Source of the DNA: an uncultured Opitutales bacterium
Lineage (GTDB): Bacteria > Verrucomicrobiota > Verrucomicrobiia > Opitutales > Intestinicryptomonadaceae
DNA: 32,000 nt
NCBI GenBank assembly: GCA_934660865.1
Contig: CAKUIA010000003.1
Location: 89,703 to 121,702, forward strand
Direction of reading: 5' to 3'
In this document: one piece after another, positions 30,818 through 31,041 of the stretch
Numbering within the stretch: the stretch's first letter is position 1
Layout of the letters: each line of letters opens with the position of its first letter
The notes under the pieces: generated by a model
The model's input: the letters and a program-made list of their open reading frames with translations, nothing else
Told to the model about the DNA's origin: nothing
Database searches by the model: none
Program-made: the position numbers and the translations under genes

Positions 30818-30866
30818 AAAAATATCACAAAAAGCGCTTGACTGTGTATTGTTGAATTTTTATTCT
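30818..30866 (+). promoter_or_regulatory. cassette 2 promoter: conserved 25-nt box plus TTGACT-17-TATTCT
   Basis: The box at 30818-30842 is identical to 26853-26877. -35 TTGACT at 30838-30843 and -10 TATTCT at 30861-30866. Confidence 0.55.
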
Positions 30867-30891
30867 ACCAATAACTACAAAAGGGTGTGTT

Positions 30892-31041
30892 ATGAAAACT
30901 AAGATTATAAAAATAATATTTGCGTTTGTTATAACGCTTGCTTCTTTTAATGCTTTGGCCGACAGCGATGCGTGCGGTAATGACAAGGGCGATGGCGATA
31001 AAGATACACAAGAGTGTATGGGAAGTGAATTGGGCGAATAG
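30892..31041 (+). CDS. small secreted acidic Cys-containing peptide, 49 aa (absent from the ORF track)
   Basis: MKTKIIKIIFAFVITLASFNALA/DSDACGNDKGDGDKDTQECMGSELGE. The signal-peptide coding region is nearly identical to 26925-26996. RBS AAGGG upstream. Confidence 0.6.
   Translation: MKTKIIKIIFAFVITLASFNALADSDACGNDKGDGDKDTQECMGSELGE

Follow-up and report, generated by a model that had tools for sequence, protein, structure and literature searches.

Two cassettes share two short islands of near-identity

We analysed a 32,000-nucleotide (nt) stretch of DNA, hereafter the window, from a human-gut metagenome contig of an uncultured Opitutales bacterium (contig CAKUIA010000003.1, positions 89,703 to 121,702). 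Two gene cassettes, A and B, occupy the end of the window (Table 1). Each opens with a small open reading frame (ORF), of 51 amino acids (aa) in cassette A (26925-27080) and 49 aa in cassette B (30892-31041), and both ORFs encode a signal peptide (SP) of classical n-h-c organisation, MKTKII[RK]IIFAFVITLASFNA[FL]A, followed by an acidic mature peptide. Public assemblies carry annotations of both ORFs, which are seen again in independent gut metagenomes. The large downstream protein of cassette A, which has its own SP, starts 2 nt past the stop codon of the peptide gene, and that of cassette B starts with GTG 11 nt past the stop; this spacing suggests translational coupling of the two genes.

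Table 1. Coordinates of the features of cassettes A and B in the window
Feature	Position	Strand	Remarks
Intrinsic-terminator-like hairpin	26767-26801	+	ends the upstream 332-aa gene; stem ATGCCTTTTA/TAAAAGGCAT
Box copy 1	26853-26877	+	AAAAATATCACAAAAA, linker GCGC, then -35-like TTGAC
Promoter core and 5' untranslated region (UTR), type P1/UTR1	26878-26924	+	AAGTTTTTGTAAATCTATTTTATTG...AGAAAGAAAAACACT; unalignable with cassette 2
SP coding block, peptide A	26925-26993	+	MKTKIIRIIFAFVITLASFNAFA, V allele
Mature peptide A and stop	26994-27080	+	DDCAGCEPGDKGCSGNPGEDNMPQQLGE
YD/Rhs-like repeat protein A, secreted, 507 aa	27083-28606	+	
Cys-rich protein, cassette A, 141 aa, N-terminal hydrophobic segment	28603-29028	+	without family match
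Secreted protein, 347 aa, last gene of cassette A	29025-30068	+	without family match
Terminator-like hairpin 5' of cassette B	30733-30761	+	stem same as at 26767-26801
Box copy 2	30818-30842	+	identical to copy 1
Promoter core and 5' UTR, type P2/UTR2	30838-30891	+	TTGACT, 17 nt, TATTCT, ACC...CTACAAAAGGGTGTGTT
SP coding block, peptide B	30892-30960	+	MKTKIIKIIFAFVITLASFNALA, V allele
Mature peptide B and stop	30961-31041	+	DSDACGNDKGDGDKDTQECMGSELGE
YD/Rhs-like repeat protein B	31053-32000	+	GTG start; extends past the window end

The two cassettes share a 25-nt box, AAAAATATCACAAAAAGCGCTTGAC, in two exact copies, and no further copy occurs in the window even when three mismatches are allowed (none is expected in shuffled sequence). 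Counted from the ATG, the SP blocks (26925-26996 versus 30892-30963) are identical at 69 of 72 nt, or at 70 of 73 bases when the T before the ATG is included (26924-26996 versus 30891-30963), as found by a repeat finder and by MAFFT alignment. Identity between and beyond these islands is at background: 29/49 for the box-to-ATG UTRs in a permissive global alignment, 61% for the mature-peptide DNA, where the drop comes after codon 24, and 54.7% (nt) and 45.7% (aa) over 315 codons of the paired YD genes. A third small island is formed by the terminator-like hairpins that precede the two cassettes, with their identical 10-nt stems. An earlier note on this DNA, made from the letters of the sequence, had reported the identical box, the near-identical starts of the small ORFs and downstream paralogues sharing about half of their residues, and all three statements hold.

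The signal-peptide block carries excess silent identity and discordant alleles

Within the SP block, identical codons are used for 20 of the 21 identical residues other than Met and Trp, compared with 69 of 139 in the paired YD genes (binomial P = 9e-6). As judged from this sequence comparison, the block is probably kept identical by recombination and not by selection on the peptide alone. Among related loci (designated L and a number, with a position where needed) two SP alleles can be distinguished, V (...TTTGTTATAACGCTTGCTTC...) and M (...[CT]TTATGATAA[CT]GCTTG[CT]GTC...). On peptide A the allele is V in the window and L086 and M in L005, L006, L060, and L011; V also occurs on peptide B and on the L011 314-aa protein. 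The history of the SP is discordant with that of the peptide behind it: the SP of peptide A in the window differs from its paralogue B at 3 of 69 nt but from the orthologous A genes of L005, L006, L060, and L011 at 9 of 69, while the mature part differs from the same orthologues at only 6 of 84 nt. At L100:6091 the SP is a chimera of the two alleles, V-type to codon 13 and M-type from codon 17. The same SP stands on four cargos, namely peptides A, B, and E and the 314-aa protein.

Flanks, promoter cores and cargos occur in different combinations

We compared 12 related loci by segment-wise identities and alignment. Three upstream flanks were distinguished, F1 after the 332-aa gene, F2 after a glycogen-phosphorylase locus, and F3 after the 347-aa gene. 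All four combinations of F1 and F2 with the two core/UTR types are present (F1-UTR1 in window cassette A, F1-UTR2 in L006 and L011, F2-UTR1 in L086 and L100:1910, and F2-UTR2 in L005), which places an exchange point at the box. Likewise, UTR1 leads peptide A (window, L086) or peptide E (L100), and UTR2 leads peptide A (L005, L006, L100:6091) or peptide B (window, L004, L088, L099); these four combinations place an exchange point inside the SP block. Behind F3 lies cassette B in the window and cassette A, with the chimeric SP, in L100.

In most relatives the box, the P2 core/UTR, and the SP are contiguous and form one conserved module of ~145 nt, and in the window, L086, and L100:1910 only the box-to-ATG segment belongs to the P1/UTR1 type. 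The window therefore seems to hold two separate islands because P1/UTR1 replaces the middle segment of cassette 1. The description of the UTRs as unalignable in the earlier note is accurate for the window pair, but it does not extend to the relatives, in which the cassette-2-type UTR joins box and SP on type-A peptides too. At the cassette-1 position of L011, a module identical to that of window cassette 2 at 96% (box), 98% (UTR), and 93% (SP) is fused to the 314-aa protein, a paralogue of the 332-aa gene product; peptide A comes after the 314-aa gene with its own SP copy and no promoter. Loci that have no 314-aa gene (L006, L060) look like products of an SP-SP crossover. In L095, from another species, three copies of the promoter plus the whole peptide gene are ~95% identical and lie before YD genes that are ~60% identical or before an unrelated operon, with the breaks at the peptide stop codon.

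A single conversion tract running from B to A is ruled out as the whole story, since the UTR between box and SP differs; what is needed is at least two events, or else a swap of the middle piece by way of the homologies on either side. The earlier suggestions that the islands are no simple old duplication and that they reflect gene conversion or recombination handles are borne out by this strain comparison, in which modules have been swapped, breakpoints fall at the box and in the SP block, an SP allele is chimeric, and SP alleles are discordant with the orthology of the mature peptides.

The box precedes several operons of the same kind

We searched the related loci for the box in a relaxed form (AAAAATATCACAAAAA with at most 3 substitutions, 2-4 nt, then TTGAC; in general form AAAAATATYACAAAAA-N2-4-TTGAC) and found 14 distinct copies. 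The 16-mer and the TTGAC are almost invariant, and 5 of the 14 copies carry 1-2 changes. The linker between them is the same at both cassette positions of each genome examined: GCGC at both in the window, ACGC at both in L011 and in L100, and TC at both L005:9972 and L005:12962. A reading of the box as a palindrome or a CRP-like half-site was rejected on inspection, as the symmetry of AAGCGCTT depends on the GCGC linker and is lost in the TC and TA variants.

Two types of promoter core follow the box. The commoner P2 consists of TTGACT, a 17-nt spacer, TATTCT, and ACC...ACAAAAG(A/G)G before the start codon, and a promoter scan listed the window copy in cassette 2 as TTGACT-17-TATTCT (30838-30866). 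In the relatives P2/UTR2 precedes peptides A and B and the 314-aa, 188-aa, and 153/366-aa proteins. The P1 core, TTGACAAGTTTT.G.AAAT.TAT, is found in window cassette 1, L086, and L100:1910, and in L076 and L088 its first ~25 nt follow the box before the operon of the 301-aa protein and Wzy_C. Overall, the box precedes genes for peptides A, B, and E and for proteins of 314, 328, 188, 153/366, and 301 aa; in the relatives the genes behind it all lie in similar islands of secreted proteins without assigned function. Because it stands before several operons of the same kind of island, the box is probably a regulon-type promoter or regulator element that is kept by selection. The earlier idea of a shared regulator-binding site is accordingly plausible for the box, which precedes at least five other operons in the relatives; promoter activity and regulator binding are predicted properties. 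As a candidate regulon signature, the shared box could help to identify the regulator and the conditions under which the operons are expressed.

An exact-pattern scan of 185,579 species genomes returned 73 stretches. Three of these belong to the peptide system, all in one metagenome-assembled genome (MAG; CAKTSY01) of an "uncultured Opitutales bacterium" from Hadza, and two of the three precede type-A peptide genes. The other 70, mostly in Clostridia, are not followed by such a peptide and resemble A-rich promoters that match by chance. At genome scale a looser pattern would have no use.

Divergent to the island and just upstream of it lies a gene for an AraC-family regulator (HTH_18, E = 2.2e-12; window 21592-22563, - strand). 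Given this adjacency and its conserved synteny, its product is a candidate binder of the box. We also observed a short motif, (AAC)TGTATTTG(CG), 5' of the box in the window (30793-30803 and 26827-26834), at L005:15479-15498, and in L100 (~5990-6010). It starts 24-26 nt before the window boxes and ~18 nt before the box at L005:15499; possible explanations are an additional element upstream of the promoter and a leftover of the duplicated intergenic region.

A probable portable 5' head module and its alternatives

We consider it probable that the two islands mark either end of a portable 5' head, a module that has been recombined between copies and onto different secreted cargos. Such a module would comprise the upstream element AAAAATATCACAAAAA with 2-4 nt and TTGAC, the promoter core with its 5' UTR, and a block encoding a Sec-type SP (MKTKII...SFNA[FL]A, cut before D). 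It would lead several operons, two of which lie in the window, each opening with the gene of a small, acidic, secreted Cys peptide that has ...LGE at its C-terminus and, close behind it, the gene of a secreted YD/Rhs-like repeat protein of ~510 aa. Copies within the genome and alleles in the population would recombine through the SP, by gene conversion or crossover, and so keep the block near-identical; the box would be kept mainly as a functional promoter or regulator element of the operon set, with homogenisation on top. The short homologies would then act as joints through which promoter cores, UTRs, and cargo genes are exchanged, duplicated, and deleted, and in the window lineage only the part of cassette 1 that lies between the joints would have been swapped for the alternative P1 core and UTR. 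In this way conserved 5' sequences would be doubly used, as functional parts (promoter element, SP codons) and as recombination joints, allowing a gut bacterium to re-pair promoters with secreted cargos.

Several observations weigh against this interpretation. The V and M alleles agree throughout the first ~32 nt of the SP block, and selection on the 5' coding region for an A/T-rich, unstructured translation start could add to the identity at silent sites. The distance from box to TTGAC is not constant but shifts by 2 nt, an uncommon property for a phased activator site, and the role of the box as promoter or protein-binding site is predicted from its letters. The comparison loci are all metagenome contigs, so junctions such as the L100 chimera could be assembly artefacts; independent samples do, however, repeat some of these arrangements (L005/L007/L008/L009; L011/L012; the window with L001/L004). 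Finally, the present loci do not allow the direction and number of the exchanges to be reconstructed, and it is by inference that we speak of their timing and direction and of the biological role of the peptide/YD pair.

The invariance of the start of the SP block between V and M is also what would be expected if selection alone, without recombination, maintained the islands, the box as a regulator or sigma site and the SP with its translation start through constraint at both the protein and the nucleotide level. The near-invariance of the box in 14 distinct promoter copies before different genes fits this explanation well, as does the comparison of the A cassettes of the window and L086, which lie at different loci and in which the UTR has diverged (85%) but the box (100%) and SP (97%) have not. 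Selection alone nonetheless leaves unexplained why the SP of window peptide A shows only 3 differences from that of paralogue B and 9 from those of its orthologues, and it accounts neither for the V/M chimera nor for the presence of all four flank/UTR and all four UTR/cargo combinations. The coexistence of two functional SP alleles 6-9 sites apart further argues that the sequence is less tightly constrained than it would require. Overall, selection alone accounts well for the box but is unlikely as the full explanation. An origin by recent uniform duplication or by chance match has next to no probability, being ruled out by the low identity outside the islands (54.7% nt, 45.7% aa) and by the expectation of zero chance matches to the box.

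A functional RNA or DNA element lying over the SP codons had been raised in the earlier note as a selected unit, and we consider it very improbable; it could be an mRNA hairpin or attenuator, a small-RNA target, or an mRNA-localisation signal. Both SP blocks do contain a hairpin, GCGTT-TGTTAT-AACGC, followed by the T-rich run TTGCTTCTTTT (26955-26970 and 30922-30937), and by inspection the L011 allele of peptide A has GCATT...AATGC at the same place, one apparent compensatory pair. The M allele of L005 and L006, however, breaks one of the five pairs, and the UTR and SP together fold no better than shuffled sequences (z = -0.04, -0.77, -1.0, and +0.63). The hairpin came from a terminator scan, which gave 17 sites in the region against 10.2 (standard deviation 3.2) in shuffles, so that a 5-bp stem carries little weight, and Rfam searches of the whole window (gathering threshold) and of 26600-31200 (E <= 1) returned only a tRNA (21511-21582). 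We give as little credence to programmed switching, in which box and SP would be the sites of a dedicated site-specific recombinase for phase or antigenic variation in the manner of a shufflon. Cassettes at one position do differ between strains, and the window does hold a tyrosine recombinase gene (1651-2649). Yet that integrase lies ~24 kb off among housekeeping genes, with no recombinase in or beside the cassettes, and the repeats are direct and not inverted. Nor do the exchanges point to a defined core site: the crossover in the one chimeric SP allele, at L100:6091, falls inside the SP block between codons 13 and 17, and the other exchanges map only to the box or the SP block as a whole. 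Identical arrangements in independent samples indicate, moreover, that the loci look stable.

The small peptides form one family

The SP ends ...SFNAFA|DD, an A-x-A site of the signal peptidase I type without a lipobox Cys, and Sec cleavage before D is predicted. When mature peptide A is compared with its orthologues in L011 and L060, all 6 of the 84 nt that differ are silent (0 aa changes), which argues that the ORF is translated and constrained. Single peptides used as protein queries retrieved types A and B alone, and a profile built from several types reached a wider family. In an alignment of eight members, one Cys, one Met, and the C-terminal LGE never vary, and LGE stays invariant across the wider family even though its codons change (CTG, CTT, TTG, or CTC for Leu; GGC, GGA, or GGT for Gly). 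Mature peptides A and B, which the earlier note took to be unrelated, are on this alignment related members of one family of acidic Cys peptides. Across ~35 peptide clusters the SP tracks lineage and not the type of mature peptide, MKTKII... occurring on A, B, E, and the 314-aa protein, MKNRFL... on C and D, and MKNTLL... on A'; concerted evolution of the 5' end would be expected to produce such a pattern. Pfam assigned no family to either peptide or to any cassette protein.

Several individual loci are also of note. At L087:10001-10168 (protein P0004) mature peptide A is joined in frame to the SP of the upstream 332-aa-type gene (MKPSNCKIFKRFFAAALFCAFSVGLFA), a fusion that removes the body of the 332-aa gene, the terminator, the box, the UTR, and the MKTKII signal peptide. 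The fusion point is exactly the predicted cleavage site of peptide A and thereby supports the assignment of that site; the window counterparts of the junction (25725-25802; 26994-27080) have TTTGCCGA.GAT in common. The middle of the three peptide copies of L095 (L095:7833-7988) has TGA in place of the Cys codon TGC (DDCKP*EEGEP...), ends in LQE and not LGE, and has lost the promoter region relative to copy 1; it is probably a decaying copy. One and the same sequence (GGGTCAACACCAAAGAGAGTGGAT[AT]TTAATGAAAGACGCCGCATAG...) interrupts peptide genes of two lineages at different codons, after SP codon 9 at L011:13957-14038 and after ...PDPDPG of a type-C mature peptide at L101:1713-2141. On the reverse strand its continuation in L101 encodes ...NGITEGFHRKMKLIQRMAYGYRNFENYRLRVL*, an end that we take to resemble the C-terminus of ISL3-family transposases. 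An insertion sequence thus seems to hit peptide genes repeatedly.

The partner protein is a half-size YD/Rhs-like repeat protein

The 507-aa protein of cassette A has 94 homologue clusters, all unnamed and all metagenomic. In Pfam the window protein does not reach RHS_repeat or TEN_YD-shell at E < 0.1, and its homologue P0044 carries PF05593. An AlphaFold (AF2) model of the protein (confidence score, pLDDT, of 85.8) consists of beta-hairpins throughout, and the top 37 Foldseek hits to this model are Rhs, teneurin, and Tc BC shells, the best being 7pq5 (E = 2.6e-11), with further matches to Rhs-core folds in 8qjc, 7q97, and 8qja. TM-scores are low (0.2-0.36) because the protein is about half the size of these shells. 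A profile search against the PDB gave weak Rhs sequence matches (8qja, E = 0.0026). Thus, the modelled structure assigns the protein a YD/Rhs-type beta-hairpin fold. Like the Rhs/YD-repeat shells it is predicted to be an all-beta-hairpin repeat sheet; the solved Rhs core, however, at ~1000 aa, is roughly twice its length, and Rhs proteins form a closed cocoon that has an N-terminal plug and a C-terminal aspartyl autoprotease and encloses a toxin domain. Rhs systems are linked to the type VI secretion system through PAAR/VgrG, while the window protein has a Sec signal peptide, and no C-terminal toxin was recognised in it.

Tentatively, and against our own expectation, the LGE peptides and their half-size YD partners might constitute an undescribed two-component extracellular system of human-gut Verrucomicrobiota. 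If so, the peptide would be a ligand or a cargo with a matching YD scaffold, serving competition or host interaction, and the repertoire would be diversified through the box and the SP block, much as in the tip swapping of Rhs and contact-dependent inhibition (CDI) systems but at the 5' end.

Comparison with known systems

The exchange mechanism is already known in other bacteria; novelty lies in the uncharacterised peptide/YD gene family. The closest documented analogue is the erp (ospE/ospF/elp) module of Borrelia burgdorferi with its "upstream homology box" (UHB), which works similarly but to which the window loci do not belong. The erp genes have a common UHB promoter and a leader that frequent recombination joins to diverse bodies (PMC7002432, PMC10016077). 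As in erp, the promoter region is near-identical at paralogous loci (25 of 25 nt in the box; 14 copies in the relatives), the leader or SP coding sequence is common to paralogues (69/72 nt; four cargos), and the mature parts are diverse and recombining, as seen in the module combinations, the chimeric SP, and the discordant histories. The erp products, however, are lipoproteins with a lipobox and a sorting sequence, while the window SP is of the signal peptidase I type and has no lipobox Cys. The erp genes reside on cp32 prophage plasmids of a spirochete and their promoter binds known regulators; the window loci are chromosomal, among housekeeping neighbours, in Verrucomicrobiota, and their cargos, acidic peptides of 26-30 aa that lead YD-repeat operons, are unlike those of erp.

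Operons with a common promoter box that open with small peptides, conserved in the leader and variable in the mature part, are also characteristic of the class II bacteriocin and peptide-pheromone regulons of lactic acid bacteria (pln, blp). Their leader is of the double-glycine type and class II bacteriocins are cationic, in contrast to the Sec-type n-h-c leader with A-x-A and the strongly acidic mature peptides of the window. The analysis found no C39-peptidase ATP-binding cassette (ABC) exporter, histidine kinase, or LytTR regulator, and the only ABC system nearby is of the MacB/FtsX type with HlyD. With respect to modifying enzymes of ribosomally synthesised and post-translationally modified peptides, whose precursors likewise combine a conserved leader with a variable core, no Pfam domain was detected on any cassette protein, and none is recorded for the counterparts in related loci, a result that leaves room for enzymes of a new type.

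Conotoxin-type superfamilies combine a signal sequence conserved at the nucleotide level with divergent Cys-containing mature peptides, a likeness to the genes described here. Conotoxin genes are eukaryotic and their parts are separated by introns, and the pattern is attributed to differential mutation and selection, whereas here we see recombination between bacterial operons. Shufflon-type switching relies on inverted sites and an adjacent recombinase; in the window the repeats are direct and the only recombinase-like gene is that at 1651-2649.

Distribution and neighbourhood

The peptide/YD family is confined to metagenomes of gut Opitutales (Intestinicryptomonadaceae-like) and no member has been named; one peptide homologue is annotated in Intestinicryptomonas porci (Opitutales, Verrucomicrobiota). 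The present analysis thus flags an unnamed, multi-copy family of peptides and YD-repeat proteins in human gut metagenomes, several of them from Hadza.

Next to the island (window 16816-21492) lies a MacB-type tripartite exporter set, comprising genes for an M50 peptidase, a 322-aa protein without family match, an FtsX/MacB permease, and an HlyD-like adaptor, with an ABC ATPase on the opposite strand. The set is syntenic in L006, L011, and L087 and absent from the second peptide locus (L005). MacAB exports the Sec-delivered enterotoxin STII, and by analogy the MacB-type set could move small peptides out of the periplasm. In other species (L089-L095; for example L089:10873-15949 and L095:10738-16247) the peptide/YD cassettes adjoin a conserved block that encodes a DUF1573 protein, two unknown proteins, Wzy_C (O-antigen ligase-like), a rhodanese, MauE/DoxX, and a ~640-aa protein; the L092 cassettes have TEN_YD-shell/RHS proteins as further neighbours. 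The MauE/DoxX and rhodanese genes hint at thiol/disulfide chemistry, possibly relevant to the Cys peptides.

Between the AraC-family gene and the island lies a gene for a secreted protein of 663 aa (22631-24622, + strand), whose matches, to (alpha/alpha)6 glycoside hydrolases (Trehalase, MGH1-like, GH116, GH94), are all weak and below threshold. The tRNA gene (+ strand, 61.9 bits) stands between the AraC-family and ABC ATPase genes. Farther upstream, a family-B DNA polymerase (DNA_pol_B plus exonuclease domain; 7625-9811, + strand) is encoded among housekeeping genes, ~5 kb from the tyrosine recombinase gene (Phage_integrase, - strand), and the GC content of the window falls to 0.36 at 2001-3000.

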